NCBI GenBank assembly: GCA_964485625.1
Contig: CAZAJM010000005.1
Location: 1-59,079 of the forward strand
DNA from: an uncultured Candidatus Saccharibacteria bacterium
GTDB taxonomy: Bacteria; Patescibacteriota; UBA1384; JAGGWG01; CAZAJM01
Length of the DNA stretch: 59,079 nucleotides
Direction of reading: 5' to 3'
This document shows, in pieces, positions 2,805 through 13,078 of the stretch (positions are counted from its first letter, which is position 1; each line of letters begins with the position of its first letter). Made by a program: the position numbers and the translations under genes. Below the pieces are notes generated by a model. The model searched no databases, was not told the origin of the DNA, and saw nothing but the letters and a program-made list of their open reading frames with translations.

Positions 2805-2867
2805 TTTTAGCTACGTGCTTAACTAGAATACTACTACATCTCCCTTATTAAGGCAAATAAAAAGAGA
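2805..2867 (-). repeat. 63-bp direct repeat copy 2 containing a promoter
   Basis: identical to 2229-2291; TTGCCT (2851-2856), 17 bp, TAGTAT (2828-2833). Confidence 0.95.
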
Positions 2868-3508: not shown

Positions 3509-4990
3509 TTAGATAACAGGCTCAACGTAGATCGGGCTATCGGTTAGTGTAATGTTTTTAGCATTTTTAATAGTTTGGCTGCCATAGATATCCGTCACTT
3601 TAACTTGGCCTTCATTTACTAACTCTTTTGGTAACTCAGCCTCTCCCCAGAGAACATAGGTCTCATAGCTACCATTAATAAACTTGTACTGGCCAATTTG
3701 ACTATCGGCAGTTGTCGCTCCCTCTTCGCTCTCAATCTGCTCATACTCTTCTTCTACTACCTCTACCTGATCAAAGTAGTTTAGCTTATCGATTAGAGTT
3801 AGATAGACCTTGTGAGTACTGCTATTTCGCTGCTCATCAGTTAGCTCTTCCTCCATAGGCTCTTTCTTCTCCTCCTTATCTTCATCCTCAGGTGGCTTTC
3901 TGTCCATCATCTCTTCTTGATCCATCCCCCAGAAAAGCCAGTTTTGAATATATACCAGCTTCTGGGCCCCCAAGCTATATGAAAGGGCGGTTGCCTTAAC
4001 CATCTGTTTTTCAATCTGTTCTTTCTCTTCTTGACTGGGCTCATCCATCAAACTGCCAAATTGAACTTCTGTAATCCAGACCGGCTTATCTTCCAAGCCA
4101 TATTTTTCTAAGAATTTATTAAACTCAATCATATAGAGATCATCCCTGGTATCTGGGGTTGAGATAGTATGGTTATTGGCAATATCAAAGTACTCTCCGC
4201 CACCTTTGGCTAAGATAGGTCCCCAAAAATCTTTAACTTCCTGTTGCATACCGGCCATGCCTCCATTTAAGACCATGGCGCTACTATCGGCCGCCTTAAT
4301 AGCTTGATAGCTATTCTTTAGGGTATCTAGGTAATCTTGACTGCTACCGACAAAGAACTTCAATTCCTCTCCGGCTCCGCCCGTGCCACCTCCCTGCATA
4401 ATTGGCTCATTTATTATCTCCCAATATTTTATCGGCTCAGTTAGTCCAGGCATATCATCAATGCCATCGCCATCGTACCTCTCTACTGCTGCCATTAGAA
4501 ACTCCCGATACTCTTCCATCGAGCATGGCTTGCCCATCTTTAAGTCTCCCCCACTCTTAGAGTGCTCAGGCGCTAAATACTCATCTCCTTGATGGCAAGT
4601 ATCTTGGTCCCAATTAACAAAAGGCTGGATAATCACAATTGGGTAGGCCTCTCTGGTCTCTAAGATCATCCTTACCTTATCGTCCATCATAGAGAAATCC
4701 ATCTGATCTTTTACTGGCTCAACTTCACTCCAATTTAGATCACACTCTCTCACCCAATAGGCACCCATAGTATCGGCTATTTTGTTCAATCTAGACTCTT
4801 TGATGTCTTCTGATAAAGTGATTGCCTCTTGAGTACTGCCCTCTTCTTCTACCTCATCTTCAATCAGGTAGTACTGGTAGAAAAAATATCCTCCAACAAG
4901 CAAGAGAATAACCACTAGCAAAGCAATTATTAGATTTGTTTTTGAGCTCCTTTTGCCCATCTGCTCAACCTCTTCCATCTCCTTTTTCAT
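3509..4990 (-). CDS. membrane-anchored clan GH-A glycoside hydrolase-like protein
   Basis: N-terminal TM; WEIINEP (acid/base) and PVWITE (nucleophile) motifs; DGDGIDD loop. Confidence 0.75.
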   Translation of the reverse strand: MKKEMEEVEQMGKRSSKTNLIIALLVVILLLVGGYFFYQYYLIEDEVEEEGSTQEAITLSEDIKESRLNKIADTMGAYWVRECDLNWSEVEPVKDQMDFSMMDDKVRMILETREAYPIVIIQPFVNWDQDTCHQGDEYLAPEHSKSGGDLKMGKPCSMEEYREFLMAAVERYDGDGIDDMPGLTEPIKYWEIINEPIMQGGGTGGAGEELKFFVGSSQDYLDTLKNSYQAIKAADSSAMVLNGGMAGMQQEVKDFWGPILAKGGGEYFDIANNHTISTPDTRDDLYMIEFNKFLEKYGLEDKPVWITEVQFGSLMDEPSQEEKEQIEKQMVKATALSYSLGAQKLVYIQNWLFWGMDQEEMMDRKPPEDEDKEEKKEPMEEELTDEQRNSSTHKVYLTLIDKLNYFDQVEVVEEEYEQIESEEGATTADSQIGQYKFINGSYETYVLWGEAELPKELVNEGQVKVTDIYGSQTIKNAKNITLTDSPIYVEPVI

Positions 4991-8740: not shown

Positions 8741-10084
8741 CTATTTTTTCTTACTTTTACTCTTACTTTTTTTCTTCTCCTTCTTTTCGCCTTTTTTCTT
8801 ATTGAGTTCTTTTAAGGCCTCTAGGGTCTTCTCGTTTCGTAAGACATTACTAATAAAGTTCTGGCCTTGCTCAGATTCGTAGTGTTCTCTAAGCTCATTC
8901 TTATCACCACCCTGCATCATTCCCTGACTGATCATTGATTCAGTTTTAGCCTTAATATCTTTATCAGTTGGCTTAACATCCTCTTCTTTGGCTAGCTGGT
9001 TAAGAACTAGAGCCACCTTAACGTTCTGCTCAGCAGACTCCTTAAGCTTCTTCTCATAGTCTTTCTCATCGATCTTAAACTTCTTGAAGTACTGCTCTTT
9101 GGTCATGCCTTGTTGGGCCAACTGACTCTCTTGCTCCTGGCTAATTCGGCTATACTCCTGTTCAACTAAGGCCTCAGGTAATTCAAACTTGGCCTTATCT
9201 ACTAGCTTGGCAATTAGGTCTTGTTCGTATTTCTTCTCTATCTCAGTCTCCATCTGTTTCTCTTGAGCTTCCTTAAACTTAACCTCAAGGTCTTCTTTGT
9301 CTTTAGCACCCATCTTCTTGGCTACCTCATCCAAACTTGCCTCTTTAACCTTCTTAACACCGTTAATCTCTACCTCAAATTCAACTTCTTTGCCTGCCAT
9401 CTCTTTATCAGGATGGTCTTTGGGAAGCTTTAGTTTAAAGCTCTTCTTCTCGCCTTTCTTCATTCCCTCAATCTGATCTTCAAAGCCATCGATAAAGCCA
9501 CCCTGGCCAATAACGAAAGGGTGATTCTGGCTAGAGAGCTGATCTACTTTAGCTCCTTTCAATTTACCTTCAAAGCTTACCTCTACCCAATCGCCTTTCT
9601 CGGCTTTTCCGTCTTTATCTTCATAGTCGGCCATTCTTTTCTTTAGGCTATCTAAGCCCTGCTTAATATCTTTCTTAGTTAGTTTAGCCTCTTCTTTTTT
9701 CACTTTTAAGTTCTTGTAGTTTGGCAATTTAATCTCAGGCATCAGATCAACCGTGTAAGACAGCTTAACTGGCTTATCTTCTTCAAACTGCTTGACATCA
9801 ACCTTTGGCTGACCGACTGCTTTTAAACCTTCATCCATAACCACCTTGCCATATACCTCCGGCAATGCCATCTGTAAGGCCTCTTGCTCAATCTTGCCCT
9901 CCTCTAAATGTTTCTTGGCAACTTTAGCAGGAACCTTACCTTTGCGAAAACCTTTAACTTCAACTTGCTTAGCTAGCTTCTCTAGAGCATCTTTCTTAAA
10001 CTCTTCAAATACCTTGACCGGCACCTCAACCAGAAGCTTAACTTTAGTCTTTTTAATCTCTTCTTTTTTAACTTTTAGATCCAT
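8741..10084 (-). CDS. tig: trigger factor
   Basis: GFRKGKVP ribosome-binding motif, FKBP-like domain, SurA-like C-terminal domain. Confidence 0.95.
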   Translation of the reverse strand: MDLKVKKEEIKKTKVKLLVEVPVKVFEEFKKDALEKLAKQVEVKGFRKGKVPAKVAKKHLEEGKIEQEALQMALPEVYGKVVMDEGLKAVGQPKVDVKQFEEDKPVKLSYTVDLMPEIKLPNYKNLKVKKEEAKLTKKDIKQGLDSLKKRMADYEDKDGKAEKGDWVEVSFEGKLKGAKVDQLSSQNHPFVIGQGGFIDGFEDQIEGMKKGEKKSFKLKLPKDHPDKEMAGKEVEFEVEINGVKKVKEASLDEVAKKMGAKDKEDLEVKFKEAQEKQMETEIEKKYEQDLIAKLVDKAKFELPEALVEQEYSRISQEQESQLAQQGMTKEQYFKKFKIDEKDYEKKLKESAEQNVKVALVLNQLAKEEDVKPTDKDIKAKTESMISQGMMQGGDKNELREHYESEQGQNFISNVLRNEKTLEALKELNKKKGEKKEKKKSKSKSKKK

Positions 10085-10149
10085 AGAATTTAAAATATTT
10101 AATTTAATTTTTGTTTACATCCTGTACAGCTTAACAAGAAAATGGCTTT

Positions 10150-10205
10150 TTGTAAAGAAAAAAGACGCTAATAACAGTAGAAATTAATACTACCTAACTA
10201 GCGAC
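10150..10205 (-). repeat. 56-bp terminator/-35 block A, copy 1
   Basis: 55/56 identical to 10781-10836; imperfect hairpin plus T6 running into TTTACA. Confidence 0.9.
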
Positions 10206-10719
10206 TGAACTTCATGCTCTCTATCAAGGTCCCTAACTGATCTTCACTGTATTTAACAGCGCCATAATACATATCATCAATAGCATCTTGTTGACGCTCT
10301 AAACAATAATTGATCTCACTGACTCTATCTGAGGTATAGACTATAACTCTAATCATAGGTCCAAAATCTCCAGTAACCTTAACTGCCTGAAACTGGTAGC
10401 AAGACCCAGAGTTAGGATAGAATACCTTATAGGCTTTAACAACCTCGCCTTCATTGGTCTTCCAACCTTCAGATTCATGAACAAATATCTCCGGACAATT
10501 AGCACGTATCCACTCTAAGGAAGCAATATCAAGATTATCTACTTCACCAATACCAACTCGGTAATAATATCTCTTCATGCCACGTATAATCATTATTACT
10601 CCAAATAATGCTAAAAACCCAAAAATGATAAGGTCATGAGTAGCCAACCAAACAAAGGCCAAAATAACTGACACTAGAATTAACTGAATATACAAGTACC
10701 TCCATGCCCTTGGGAACAT
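10198..10719 (-). CDS. 2-TM hypothetical protein (cassette paralog 1)
   Basis: start moved to ATG 10719 (SD GGGAGG 6 nt upstream); remote similarity to 10825-11331 (NL..LEWI..N.P.I, YKVFY). Confidence 0.7.
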   Translation of the reverse strand: MFPRAWRYLYIQLILVSVILAFVWLATHDLIIFGFLALFGVIMIIRGMKRYYYRVGIGEVDNLDIASLEWIRANCPEIFVHESEGWKTNEGEVVKAYKVFYPNSGSCYQFQAVKVTGDFGPMIRVIVYTSDRVSEINYCLERQQDAIDDMYYGAVKYSEDQLGTLIESMKFSR

Positions 10720-10729
10720 ATTTTTCCTC

Positions 10730-10794
10730 CCGTACTTCAAAGATCGATGCTGAATAAGATACTACACTAAATATTAGTTATTGTAAAGAAAAAA
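10730..10794 (-). repeat. 65-bp promoter/5'UTR block B, copy 1
   Basis: 64/65 identical to 11345-11409; TTTACA (10782-10787), 17 bp, TAGTAT (10759-10764). Confidence 0.9.
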
Positions 10795-10836
10795 GACGCT
10801 AATAACAGTAGAAATTTATACTACCTAACTAGCGAC
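10781..10836 (-). repeat. 56-bp terminator/-35 block A, copy 2
   Basis: 55/56 identical to 10150-10205; overlaps block B by the 14-bp core TTGTAAAGAAAAAA. Confidence 0.9.
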
Positions 10837-11331
10837 CAGTTGGCGTGCTTTTTCAAGATTAAGCCTACTTAGCTTAATAGCACTTTTATGAGCTGCAGCT
10901 AACGCTTTTCTTCTGTCTTCAATTGGATATCGCTCTTGATGGATATTACCCTCATCGTCGACCACATCAACAGTGATCTCATCTTTGCTTGGATTAAACT
11001 TTGCTTCAACGACTCGGAAATGGTCCTCGAAATACACTCTATACCTAGTTGTCAGGTTATCACAAAAAAGTTTATCGGCTAGTATCCCTGGCCTATTTTC
11101 TATTAGCCACTCAATATCTTCGGAAGACAAATTTAGTGTATCTTCTCTAATAGTTCTAAAATTTCGATCCAAGATTATCAACAGGGTGAGTATCAACGGA
11201 ATAAATATAATTATCACAATGGATAAACATAAATCACCAATACCGAAATCTAATCGAATTTTCAAAACAAAAAGTATCAACATACAAGTTGCTATCAATA
11301 TCACAAAGAGCTTTCTTTGGCTTGGCAACAT
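10825..11331 (-). CDS. 2-TM hypothetical protein (cassette paralog 2)
   Basis: likely ATG at 11331 (alternatives 11340, or TTG 11355); remote paralog of 10198-10719. Confidence 0.7.
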   Translation of the reverse strand: MLPSQRKLFVILIATCMLILFVLKIRLDFGIGDLCLSIVIIIFIPLILTLLIILDRNFRTIREDTLNLSSEDIEWLIENRPGILADKLFCDNLTTRYRVYFEDHFRVVEAKFNPSKDEITVDVVDDEGNIHQERYPIEDRRKALAAAHKSAIKLSRLNLEKARQLVAS

Positions 11332-11344
11332 GCTCCTCATCCTT

Positions 11345-11409
11345 CCGTACTTCAAAGATCGATGCTGAATAAGATACTACATTAAATATTAGTTATTGTA
11401 AAGAAAAAA
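11345..11409 (-). repeat. 65-bp promoter/5'UTR block B, copy 2
   Basis: 64/65 identical to 10730-10794; TTTACA (11397-11402), 17 bp, TAGTAT (11374-11379). Confidence 0.9.
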
Positions 11410-11472
11410 AGCTTCAATAAAGGTGTAAAAAAGTGCGGATCTAGTAACTGACCTTAAATTAAAGCTTGATAG

Positions 11473-11631
11473 TTAGTGCTCGTTATACCATTTCTGATTG
11501 TTATGACGACTATGAGGTAGCTTTCTTGGAGAGGTGCTCCCACATGTTACAATCTGCTCACAATAACTCTTAAATGATATACGATTAGTCTCCCCCTGCT
11601 TTCTGCTTCTTTCTTCTGTTGCCAACTTCAT
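11473..11631 (-). CDS. putative small protein of 50-52 aa (not in ORF track)
   Basis: MKLATEERSRKQGETNRISFKSYCEQIVTCGSTSPRKLPHSRHNNQKWYNEH; GGAGG 7 nt before in-frame TTG 11625; upstream TGaTATAAT (11667-11675); downstream hairpin 11410-11466 plus T-tract. Confidence 0.35.
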   Translation of the reverse strand: MKLATEERSRKQGETNRISFKSYCEQIVTCGSTSPRKLPHSRHNNQKWYNEH

Positions 11632-11814
11632 TCCTCCCTCTGCTGCCTTCCTAACGGCTTGAATATATTATATCAAACATTTATTAAGCCAGACTGTGGA
11701 TAGCTTTGAATAGTAGTAGTTTAAATTAAAAAAAGACAGTAAATATATACTAAAGATTAGTTTATGTAAAGAAAAAATAGCTGGTTTAACCTGTCTTCAG
11801 CTATTTAATCGATA

Positions 11815-12648
11815 TTACCTTATCTTCCAGTTTTTAATCACCATTTCATAGCTCTCCGGTGTGCCTGTGTCATACCAAACCCCGTCAAAAGGGTAGCCGT
11901 GTAATTCCTCGTCATCAACTAGGTTGGGGTAGACATCCTGCTCGATCATAGAAAAGCCGGTCTGGGGAATATATTTAATCACCTCCGGCTCAAGCATAGC
12001 TATCCCGGCATTTACCAAATTAGAGGGCTCCTCTCCTTTCTTTGGCTTCTCTACAAAATTTACTATTTGATTACCTCTCATCTCAACTACGCCAAGCTGA
12101 CTTACATCATCAACGTTAGCCAGAGCCATAGTTGCCAGTCCGGGATGGCTCTTGTGGAACCGGCTCATCTCTTTTAGATCAATGTCAGCCAAAATATCAC
12201 ACCAGATAAGCAGAAAACTATCTTTTAGCTTGTTCTCTATTTTTCTCAAAGGTCCAGCTGTGCCAAGCTTGTCTTTCTCCACAATATACTCAATATCTAA
12301 ACCATAGTTGCTACCATCTCCAAAGTGATCCATTATCTTATCGGCCATATAGCCGACAGAGATAAATATCTTCTCAAAACCATATCTTTTCAGTAATGCT
12401 AGGGTATGCTCGGTTAGGGCCTTGCCTTTAACCGGGATCAGGGGCTTGGGAACTTCATAAGTAAACGGTCGCAGTCGAGTGCCTCTACCTCCGGCCTGAA
12501 TCACCGCTGTCTTAACACTATGTAGGCCCATGCCCTCTTTTAGATGCCTCTCAATAGCTTGGGAGCGGTTCTCTCCTTCTTTAGTTGATTGGTTTAATTT
12601 CTTTAGTAGGTTTTTGTCAATTGAAAAACTAATACGTTGTTTACTCAT
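11815..12648 (-). CDS. ribbon-helix-helix / sugar-phosphate nucleotidyltransferase fusion
   Basis: N-terminal RISFSIDKNLLKKL...NRSQAIE (CopG-like RHH); AGGRGTRLRPFTYEVPKPL NTP-transferase motif. Confidence 0.85.
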   Translation of the reverse strand: MSKQRISFSIDKNLLKKLNQSTKEGENRSQAIERHLKEGMGLHSVKTAVIQAGGRGTRLRPFTYEVPKPLIPVKGKALTEHTLALLKRYGFEKIFISVGYMADKIMDHFGDGSNYGLDIEYIVEKDKLGTAGPLRKIENKLKDSFLLIWCDILADIDLKEMSRFHKSHPGLATMALANVDDVSQLGVVEMRGNQIVNFVEKPKKGEEPSNLVNAGIAMLEPEVIKYIPQTGFSMIEQDVYPNLVDDEELHGYPFDGVWYDTGTPESYEMVIKNWKIR

Positions 12649-12682: not shown

Positions 12683-13078
12683 CTACTTTTCTATCACTTT
12701 CCAGCCCGATCGATCAGACTTATCCACAGTTATAGGAGAAAGGTATCTTTTAAGCTCTGAGAGAAAAATTATTGATCCGTAGTTGGCCTTATCTCTAATG
12801 CGCCAAAACTTATTAGTTGTTTTAGATTTTGATTGGTATCGTTTTTTTAATTGAGTAAGTTTCTGACCATCCAGCCTATCAAAAAAGAGCACGTTCTCAA
12901 TCCGTGCTTCTCCATAGACCTTGCCGCCCGATTTTTTGATTAAGATCAGCTCACCTCTTCTAGCCTGTTGGTAGGGAGCGATAGCCTTTTTAGAGAGCCT
13001 AATATCTACTCTTTTATCGGCCCTAAAAACCTTATCAATTTGATCTTTGCTAAAAACAGCAATATGTTTCTTGCTCAT
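12683..13078 (-). CDS. ASCH/PUA-like domain protein
   Basis: HIAVF...KRVDIRLS...PY...GELILIKKSGGKVYG pattern. Confidence 0.65.
   Translation of the reverse strand: MSKKHIAVFSKDQIDKVFRADKRVDIRLSKKAIAPYQQARRGELILIKKSGGKVYGEARIENVLFFDRLDGQKLTQLKKRYQSKSKTTNKFWRIRDKANYGSIIFLSELKRYLSPITVDKSDRSGWKVIEK

Follow-up and report, generated by a model that had tools for sequence, protein, structure and literature searches.

The 59,079-nucleotide (nt) contig CAZAJM010000005.1 of an uncultured Candidatus Saccharibacteria bacterium, analysed here over its whole length and called the window, carries two tandem gene units between a conserved small open reading frame (ORF) and tig, the gene for trigger factor. 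We use slot for this intergenic space and unit for a segment that would comprise a promoter, a 5' untranslated region (5'UTR) with a Shine-Dalgarno sequence, a coding sequence of ~170 amino acids (aa) with two predicted transmembrane (TM) helices, a terminator hairpin and a U-tract. Our favoured explanation, which we hold to be moderately probable, is that units are added, lost and swapped at a recombinase-independent slot, by recombination at a short core sequence and at the blocks flanking the coding sequences. The slot has a defined anatomy in the window, an exact empty counterpart in relatives and a content that varies among them, and no dedicated recombinase accompanies it. Every gene of the locus is encoded on the minus strand, in the order RHH-NTP-transferase (RHH, ribbon-helix-helix; NTP, nucleoside triphosphate), the 52-aa small ORF, a unit with ORF2 (B-ORF2-A), a unit with ORF1 (B-ORF1-A) and tig, A and B being the flanking blocks.

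The core joins predicted terminators to predicted promoters

On the minus strand the core reads TTTTTTCTTTACA (TGTAAAGAAAAAA on the forward strand), and its copies start at 10151, 10782, 11397 and 11765, the positions given in a preliminary description of this DNA. Four copies compare with 0.4 expected in the window, a number that none of 100 shuffles reached, and the whole 723,905-bp assembly contains these four only; because all of them sit at the slot locus, the core is specific to it. The 10-mer TTTCTTTACA occurs six times genome-wide, four times at the slot locus. We considered the core as a genome-wide promoter consensus and rejected this candidate, the core being confined to the slot locus and the other promoters of the genome lacking it.

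The core consists of the U-tract of a predicted terminator joined to the next predicted -35 hexamer. At all four copies the T-run follows immediately on the stem of a hairpin (-11.5 to -16 kcal/mol; z -2.1 to -3.9), and TTTACA is followed, after 17 nt, by TATATT, TAGTAT, TAGTAT or TAAGCT. A promoter consensus scan called three of the four sites; that of tig, TTTACA-17-TAAGCT, fell below the threshold, but five relatives (L025, L026, L027, L031 and L032) retain its TAnnnT -10 box at the 17-nt spacing. These results bear out the earlier proposal that the core provides the -35 of a predicted promoter at each site, the first being tig's own. A simple terminator scan, which handles loops of 3-8 nt only, called none of the core hairpins. 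All junctions combine a -35/-10 pair spaced 16-17 nt with a hairpin that reaches the U-tract, and by these features the cores would carry working promoters and terminators. Direct reading and folding revealed no dyad symmetry in the core. Core 1 (10151-10163) and the predicted tig promoter together span 10128-10163 of the minus strand, with TTTTTTC-TTTACA (-35), a 17-nt spacer and TAAGCT (-10, 10128-10133).

Near-identical blocks flank dissimilar coding sequences

The two copies of block A (10150-10205 and 10781-10836) are identical at 55 of 56 positions (98.2%), and a repeat search extends the match to 59 nt at 97% (10147-10205 and 10778-10836, minus strand). Those of block B (10725-10794 and 11340-11409, minus strand) agree at 68 of 70 positions and over the inner 65 nt at 64, so that the near-identity reported earlier (55/56 for A, 64/65 for B) is confirmed and, for B, reaches further. 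Neither block has another copy anywhere in the genome. Copy 1 of block A comprises the final codons of ORF1 with its stop, three TAGs, a hairpin (-16 kcal/mol, z = -3.9), the U-tract and a -35, and copy 2 holds the end and stop of ORF2, a hairpin of -14.2 kcal/mol and the U-tract. Copy 1 of block B contains core 2 (10782-10794), the 5'UTR of ORF1 and the predicted promoter TTTACA-17-TAGTAT, whose spacer includes the palindrome ACTAATATTTAGT; copy 2 contains core 3 (11397-11409) with the predicted promoter and 5'UTR of ORF2. Block A begins 2-4 codons ahead of the stop, and block B homology ends at the Shine-Dalgarno sequence. The shared CTAGTTAGGTAG supplies TAG stops in three frames, and ORF1 and ORF2 do stop in different frames, as had been noticed before, by using different TAGs of it.

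Block A copy 2 and block B copy 1 have only the core (13-14 nt) in common: in the window, A-homology stops and B-homology starts on opposite sides of this same core. When the units were aligned with each other, their flanks matched at 64/65 and 56/57 positions and their coding bodies at 0.568 matches per position, compared to 0.514 +/- 0.014 for shuffled sequences, and the identity of ~98% fell to near-random within a few bases at the edges of the coding bodies. We rejected in-place divergence of a simple tandem duplicate, in view of flanks that are 97-98% identical around saturated coding bodies; with it excluded, recombination must have homogenised the flanks or put different coding sequences into the same flanks. 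Since the window and its sister L027 are only 76-80% identical in orthologous intergenic DNA (75-79% in tig DNA), the homologous event that left the A and B flanks 97-98% alike is much younger than the split of the two genomes.

The spacers between -35 and -10 of the unit promoters hold a 13-nt palindrome (10763-10775 and 11378-11390, minus strand), which is also found at 11746-11758. Its sequence is ACTAATATTTAGT in the window and ACTAATAATTAGA in relatives (L026:~1544-1556 and L032:~3545-3557), and it is kept across genomes with tig only 52-75% identical. The palindrome may be an operator.

Relatives have an exact empty site or other occupants

Contigs of relatives were fetched from public assemblies through their tig homologues, which are 73-81% identical to that of the window in L025, L026, L027 and L031. 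GTDB species representatives included no close relative (best tig match, 41% identical), and Joint Genome Institute metagenome contigs, scanned via tig, yielded a single distant relative only. By the tig tree L027 (tig 81%) is the sister of the window, with support of 100/99. It has no unit: its small ORF is followed by the hairpin, TTTTTTTCTTTACA, the tig spacer and tig. The left flank of the window through core 3, joined to the right flank after core 1, aligns colinearly with L027 and needs no gap where the two meet, and the window therefore differs from L027 by a 1246-nt indel bounded by 13-nt direct repeats. This two-unit segment (10164-11409, minus strand), the bounding repeats of which are cores, is absent as well from L025 (tig 75%), where the NTP-transferase gene, the small ORF, one core and tig follow each other.

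Other relatives have other occupants. L026 (tig 75%) carries the small ORF, a core, a 196-aa ORF, the core-like TTTTTTTATTTACA, a 172-aa ORF, a core and tig; L032 (tig 55%) has an unrelated 96-aa ORF and then, adjoining tig, a 173-aa orthologue of the 172-aa unit of L026. In L035 (tig 56%), the terminator of the NTP-transferase gene is immediately followed by CTTTTTCTTTACA, and another ORF, of 114 aa, by a similar motif; L031 (tig 73%) has a core ahead of tig with yet another left flank, at which its contig ends. The interval from the NTP-transferase gene or small ORF to tig thus contains no unit in L025 and L027, two in the window and in L026, and the 96-aa ORF plus one unit in L032. It had been predicted that relatives would show from zero to n cassettes with the core retained, and so they do, L027 and L025 having one core and L026 cores at three junctions; the opposite pattern, in which gene number and order would be unchanged and the intergenic DNA would have diverged normally, was looked for in these relatives and not seen.

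The L032 173-aa protein is 43% identical to its 172-aa counterpart in L026, and the two have the same promoter and 3' flank. This 43% compares to 52% for tig, that is, rates are about equal, and ORF1 has no detectable similarity to either of these occupants of the same position. Because the L026/L032 unit changes about as fast as tig, ORF1 is a different occupant rather than a diverged orthologue. The presence of one unit type in both L026 and the distant L032 indicates that units are probably ancestral and were lost from L025 and L027, which is the direction of events that we infer.

Soundness of the assembly

The window is contig C5 of a 31-contig assembly of 723,905 bp (~39% G+C, estimated 95.7% complete). 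Contig ends overlap by 55 nt, which gives the assembler k, and the longest exact stretch in the repeats is 37 nt; because k exceeds the length of the repeats, real k-mers or reads are needed to produce the A|core|B junction, which is no graph artefact. Independent Logan contigs from two runs (SRR15425350 and SRR15425351) match the window at 100% identity and break off at 10179 and 11352, the exact branch points expected of a k=31 graph at these repeats. It is highly improbable that two strains, each with one unit in identical flanks, were joined by the assembler into a chimeric tandem. This is a metagenome-assembled genome, and identical flanks round different coding sequences do resemble two alleles, but A and B share 13-14 nt, a length that like the 37-nt exact repeat is under k, and the breaks of the Logan contigs fit two copies of each block in one graph. 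We therefore rejected the chimera in practice, the repeats being shorter than the assembler k.

The unit proteins share an architecture

ORF1 (10198-10719, minus strand) encodes 173 aa from an ATG that is preceded at 6 nt by the Shine-Dalgarno sequence GGGAGGA, with a TTG at 10740 as alternative start, and its product has two N-terminal TM helices and a ~110-aa soluble domain. ORF2 (10825-11331, minus strand; 168 aa from the ATG) has an architecture like that of ORF1. AlphaFold2 models (predicted local distance difference test, 70 for ORF1 and 57 for ORF2) give the predicted orders TM-TM-helix-4 strands-helix and TM-TM-helix-5 strands-helix, respectively. Common to the unit proteins are a length of 168-196 aa, two N-terminal TM helices and the predicted helix/4-5 strands/helix order. 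By the positive-inside rule, basic residues after the second TM helix place the soluble domain probably in the cytoplasm, tethered to the membrane.

The preliminary description had called ORF1 and ORF2 remote paralogs, which is not demonstrable. BLASTP of one against the other is not significant beyond a few N-terminal residues encoded by block B; the best pair of unit proteins, ORF2 and the 196-aa protein of L026, gives a marginal pairwise match (E = 7e-4), hhalign probabilities of the L026/L032 unit type against the other unit proteins are below 1%, and architecture alone is common to them. A word-based search of 5.8e9 proteins matched ORF1 to itself only, and ORF2 likewise, both being ORFans, and exact look-ups of both in public assemblies gave no match. 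A full HMMER profile search of 1.84e9 representatives recovered the four input proteins and one orthologue of the L026 unit (that of L032), a profile search of the window's own genome found no further member, and GTDB genomes and viral contigs scanned with the L026/L032 unit type yielded no relative. Searches of the unit proteins against Pfam, PADLOC, PHROGs and NCBIfam gave nothing above noise, and Foldseek searches of the Protein Data Bank (PDB) with the predicted models, whose confidence is low to moderate, found no match below E = 0.26.

Probable recombination at the core, and alternatives

Every unit starts and ends in TTTTTTCTTTACA, so that direct repeats of the same 13-14 nt are present at all junctions. 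Recombination between any two cores would add, delete or reorder whole units, and each such event would leave an intact terminator/promoter junction, tig's own promoter included. The routes could be unequal crossover, slipped or microhomology-mediated recombination, or recombination on DNA acquired by transformation. In the simplest history of the window, two alleles of a one-unit locus, one with ORF1 and one with ORF2 in the same flanks, would have been merged by a crossover at the core; equivalently, a unit could have been duplicated and one coding sequence replaced via the A and B arms, and conversion of the flanks is a further candidate for their likeness. Circular-unit integration, unequal crossover, deletion and allele merger all fit the present comparisons alike.

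On the reading we favour, such events left their footprints in the switch from A- to B-homology at the core and in the exact empty sites of L027 and L025. The core is also kept beside quite different genes, namely at all three junctions of L026, in L031 and in L035 (tig 56%). RecA and ComEC are encoded in the genome. No transposase, integrase or terminal inverted repeat was found at 9500-12500 by inspection of the ORF list and a repeat search. The whole genome has one match to the tyrosine recombinase family PF00589, a 315-aa protein encoded on contig C7, outside the window, which is probably the chromosome-resolving Xer enzyme, and none to the serine recombinase family PF00239 (95.7% completeness). 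We infer that the core is a crossover point rather than merely a conserved functional motif. What had been proposed before, integration or amplification of cassettes by crossover at the core, is upheld in its prediction of zero to n cassettes with a retained core; its fourth core as a cassette boundary (see below) and its remote paralogs are not supported.

Several points weigh against recombination at the core. The core doubles as terminator and promoter, and purifying selection alone could keep it; only deletions that spare a tig promoter survive, and exact junctions could partly reflect this survivorship. A length of 13 nt is under the usual minimum for efficient RecA-dependent recombination. 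The unit flanks of L026 are unlike each other apart from the core, and the -35 of tig in L032 is TTGAAG, so that the motif is neither invariant nor always accompanied by long flanks. The relatives compared are distant ones at species or genus level (tig 70-81% identity), not strains, and no polymorphism within a population was seen among them. Moreover, a second diverged gene pair in the window (region 1733-2867) is preceded by promoter blocks that agree at 63 of 63 positions (2229-2291 and 2805-2867, minus strand), which shows local promoter homogenisation without cassette turnover. This block starts at the T-run/-35 TCTCTTTTTATTTGCC and ends ~20 nt before the start codons, and the proteins behind it are single-TM proteins of 157 and 149 aa with 25% identity (E = 2.5e-4). 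Promoter homogenisation or duplication may, as this pair suggests, be recurrent in this genome.

These points lend themselves to an explanation that we consider unlikely, if worth serious attention: that ORF1 and ORF2 are ordinary ancient tandem genes, with a core kept for its function as U-tract and -35 alone and no role in recombination. The relatives would then differ by replacement of the whole interval via the conserved flanking genes, as in minimal mobile elements (see below), and the near-identity of the A and B copies would stem from short-tract gene conversion between neighbouring regulatory regions. Such conversion is in keeping with the intermediate similarity just inside the coding sequences (ATGTTSCCAAG...), with the second pair, where the 63/63 promoter block precedes 25%-identical proteins, and with the normally diverged unit flanks of L026; flank-mediated exchange is shown by the discordance between small ORF and tig described below, and RecA and ComEC are at hand. 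Yet the breakpoints of A and B homology match both edges of the core, and the L027 indel is base-exact at the core. Whole-interval replacement leaves two-unit arrays with A|core|B junctions unexplained, and a purely functional motif accords poorly with a core that is kept beside quite different genes at 56% tig identity and lacking from the other promoters of the genome. That a site-specific recombinase moves the units, with an att-like core, excision as circles and reintegration in the manner of integron cassettes, seems to us improbable. The same short, locus-specific sequence does stand at every junction in several genomes, and units without detectable mutual similarity occupy the same slot. 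Against this, no integrase is encoded in or near the locus, the sole tyrosine recombinase of the genome being on another contig and serine recombinases absent; the core has neither dyad symmetry nor attC-like R and L boxes; the units carry their own promoters; no block, core or family member occurs elsewhere in the genome; the L026/L032 unit type has no relatives in viral contigs or GTDB genomes; and for this one type inheritance between L026 and L032 was vertical. Recombination at the core and flanking blocks, without a dedicated enzyme, thus remains our preferred reading.

A bolder version of the preferred reading, which we regard as rather doubtful, is that the slot is a recombinase-free 'plug-and-play' landing pad in a clade of the Candidate Phyla Radiation (CPR), the 13-nt composite acting as both unit boundary and crossover point. 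In this genome a standard chassis, with promoter and 5'UTR ahead of the coding sequence and a three-frame stop and terminator behind it, would accept any coding sequence in any frame, and membrane-tethered ORFans, perhaps immunity or exclusion factors, could be exchanged by transformation between lineages while expression of tig, an essential gene, stayed undisturbed. The spacer palindrome could even put all units under one repressor, possibly the RHH-NTP-transferase.

Comparison with known systems

The closest process described is the diversification of the lpl tandem cluster of Staphylococcus aureus, in which a conserved segment serves as the site of homologous recombination. The conserved evolutionary unit there comprises the 3' end of an ORF, the intergenic region behind it and the 5' end of the following ORF (Tsuru and Kobayashi, 2008; PMC2568036). 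The lpl cluster and the slot are alike in having tandem genes of related architecture, a copy number and composition that vary between genomes, and a short conserved sequence per unit, and the lpl evolutionary unit matches the A|core|B arrangement. Features of this type at the slot are the core at all junctions of the window, L026 and L031, the conserved A and B blocks of the window, and the indel end-points and the A/B switch located at cores. In lpl, however, recombination takes place at a mid-ORF site and shuffles the halves of the protein, whereas the slot has a conserved intergenic module and exchanges whole coding sequences; lpl genes are clear paralogs, whereas what the slot units demonstrably share is an architecture; and lpl was compared between strains, the slot between species-level relatives.

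The minimal mobile elements of Neisseria (Saunders and Snyder, 2002, as cited in PMC1797815) are small sets of genes, devoid of mobility functions, that replace one another at a site flanked by conserved genes. The slot fits this definition and adds a defined junction motif and tandem stacking. In both, zero to three genes occupy one syntenic site in an organism with DNA-uptake and RecA functions; exchange of the Neisseria elements is ascribed in that text to homology of the flanking genes, with no junction motif, in contrast to the 13-nt composite at unit boundaries and the tandem stacking of the slot.

Integron cassettes resemble the slot in forming arrays of single-gene units at one site, with repeats at the junctions and unrelated cargo. 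An integron has an adjacent intI, attC sites with a GTTRRRY core, and mostly promoterless cassettes that are expressed from Pc. Reading and folding of 10725-10836 revealed no attC structure, that is, no GTTRRRY/RYYYAAC pair, and a terminator-like hairpin with U-tract instead. The slot lacks intI and attC/attI structure, and each unit has its own predicted -35/-10, Shine-Dalgarno sequence and terminator; with adjacent intI, attC sites and promoterless cassettes all looked for and none found, it is not an integron. An insertion sequence or miniature inverted-repeat transposable element was rejected as a candidate, for there are no terminal inverted repeats and the apparent target duplication is the same sequence across genomes and units. 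The vsp, vlp and vpma families of Mycoplasma are surface-protein families with highly conserved 5' expression regions. With the slot they have in common near-identical promoter and 5' regions, divergent coding bodies and a small, reduced genome, but these families switch by site-specific inversion or promoter slippage and encode lipoproteins with a conserved signal peptide, whereas the slot has no invertase and no inverted arrangement, and both of its genes have complete predicted promoters.

Genomes of CPR bacteria (Patescibacteria) are tiny and rich in lineage-specific ORFans, the turnover of which is little understood. The slot offers a concrete and testable route for such turnover, in which expression units would be stacked, lost and exchanged beside a housekeeping gene; it would need no mobile-element enzymes and cause no polar effects. 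If the core is truly a crossover site, this would be a natural modular gene exchange in which the regulatory junction itself supplies the homology for recombination. The membrane-anchored proteins of the units, a small and family-like set that turns over rapidly, would also provide candidates for interactions with host, phage or competitors in episymbionts.

Neighbouring genes, the small ORF and the 114-nt insert

The conserved gene downstream of the slot, tig (8741-10084, minus strand), encodes a 447-aa trigger factor with the Pfam domains Trigger_N, FKBP_C and Trigger_C. Upstream of the slot lies the RHH-NTP-transferase gene (11815-12648, minus strand; 277 aa), with a match to Pfam NTP_transferase and a weak one to RHH_1, which is syntenic in L025, L026, L032 and L035. 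An Rfam scan of the window returned zero matches.

The small ORF (11473-11631, minus strand; 52 aa) has a predicted extended -10 promoter of its own, TGATATAAT, at ~11665-11700, and a terminator hairpin, AAGCTTTAATTTAAGG...CCTTTATTGAAGCTT (11410-11472, minus strand; -12.4 kcal/mol), which ends at core 3 and is kept in L027 and L026. Homologues are found at the same place in L025 (L025:6562-6720), L026 (L026:~590-763), L027 (L027:~159-326) and L032 (L032:2926-3117), in these relatives always between the NTP-transferase gene and the slot, and the proteins are basic, 52-63 aa long and share a GS[TI]SP motif; none of Pfam, PADLOC, PHROGs and NCBIfam gave a match above noise for the small ORF. It exists in two deeply diverged allelic types, window and L025 versus L026 and L027, a grouping that disagrees with the tig tree: the small ORF of the window is 71% identical at the nt level to that of L025 and 53% to that of L027, whereas terminator, tig promoter and tig group the window with L027. 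Because these groupings conflict, the locus is a mosaic, which implies an old recombination break near the small-ORF stop codon.

The earlier reading counted core 4 (11765-11777) with the three cores of the cassettes. It does not bound a cassette, as 11410-11700 is occupied by the conserved small gene and core 4 lies within a 114-nt insert that is specific to the window (11701-11814, minus strand; repeat family D1). The insert stands directly after the NTP-transferase stop and contains a hairpin, core 4, a promoter that matches the start of block B at 29 of 32 positions, a small hairpin resembling that of block A, and a T-run. It is absent from L025, L026 and L032, where the TAA is directly followed by TCCACAG. 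It gives the NTP-transferase gene a predicted terminator hairpin and adds a second, B-like promoter ahead of that of the small ORF. From its make-up it looks like a module without coding sequence and could be a unit scar or a separate insertion.

Two observations concern more distant lineages. The metagenome contigs L029 (L029:1250-1470) and L030 (L030:150-890) encode an identical tig protein, 53% identical to that of the window, and differ by an insert of ~500 nt with a 155-aa ORF between an upstream 132-aa gene and tig; the region upstream of tig is variable in this lineage too, without an obvious core motif. On the 192-kb contig L028 (tig 53%) the order is pgk-fba-pfkB-135-aa ORF-tig, without NTP-transferase gene, small ORF or units (L028:5597-6004 compared to window 12683-13078). 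The whole segment from the NTP-transferase gene to the slot may be an addition of a sub-clade.

Elsewhere in the assembly, a dispersed repeat of ~80-105 nt occurs in five copies with 88-97% identity (C1:53036-53113, C1:138072-138173, C3:15292-15395, C4:11445-11537 and C6:45014-45118) and may represent either a hairpin element or a tRNA gene.

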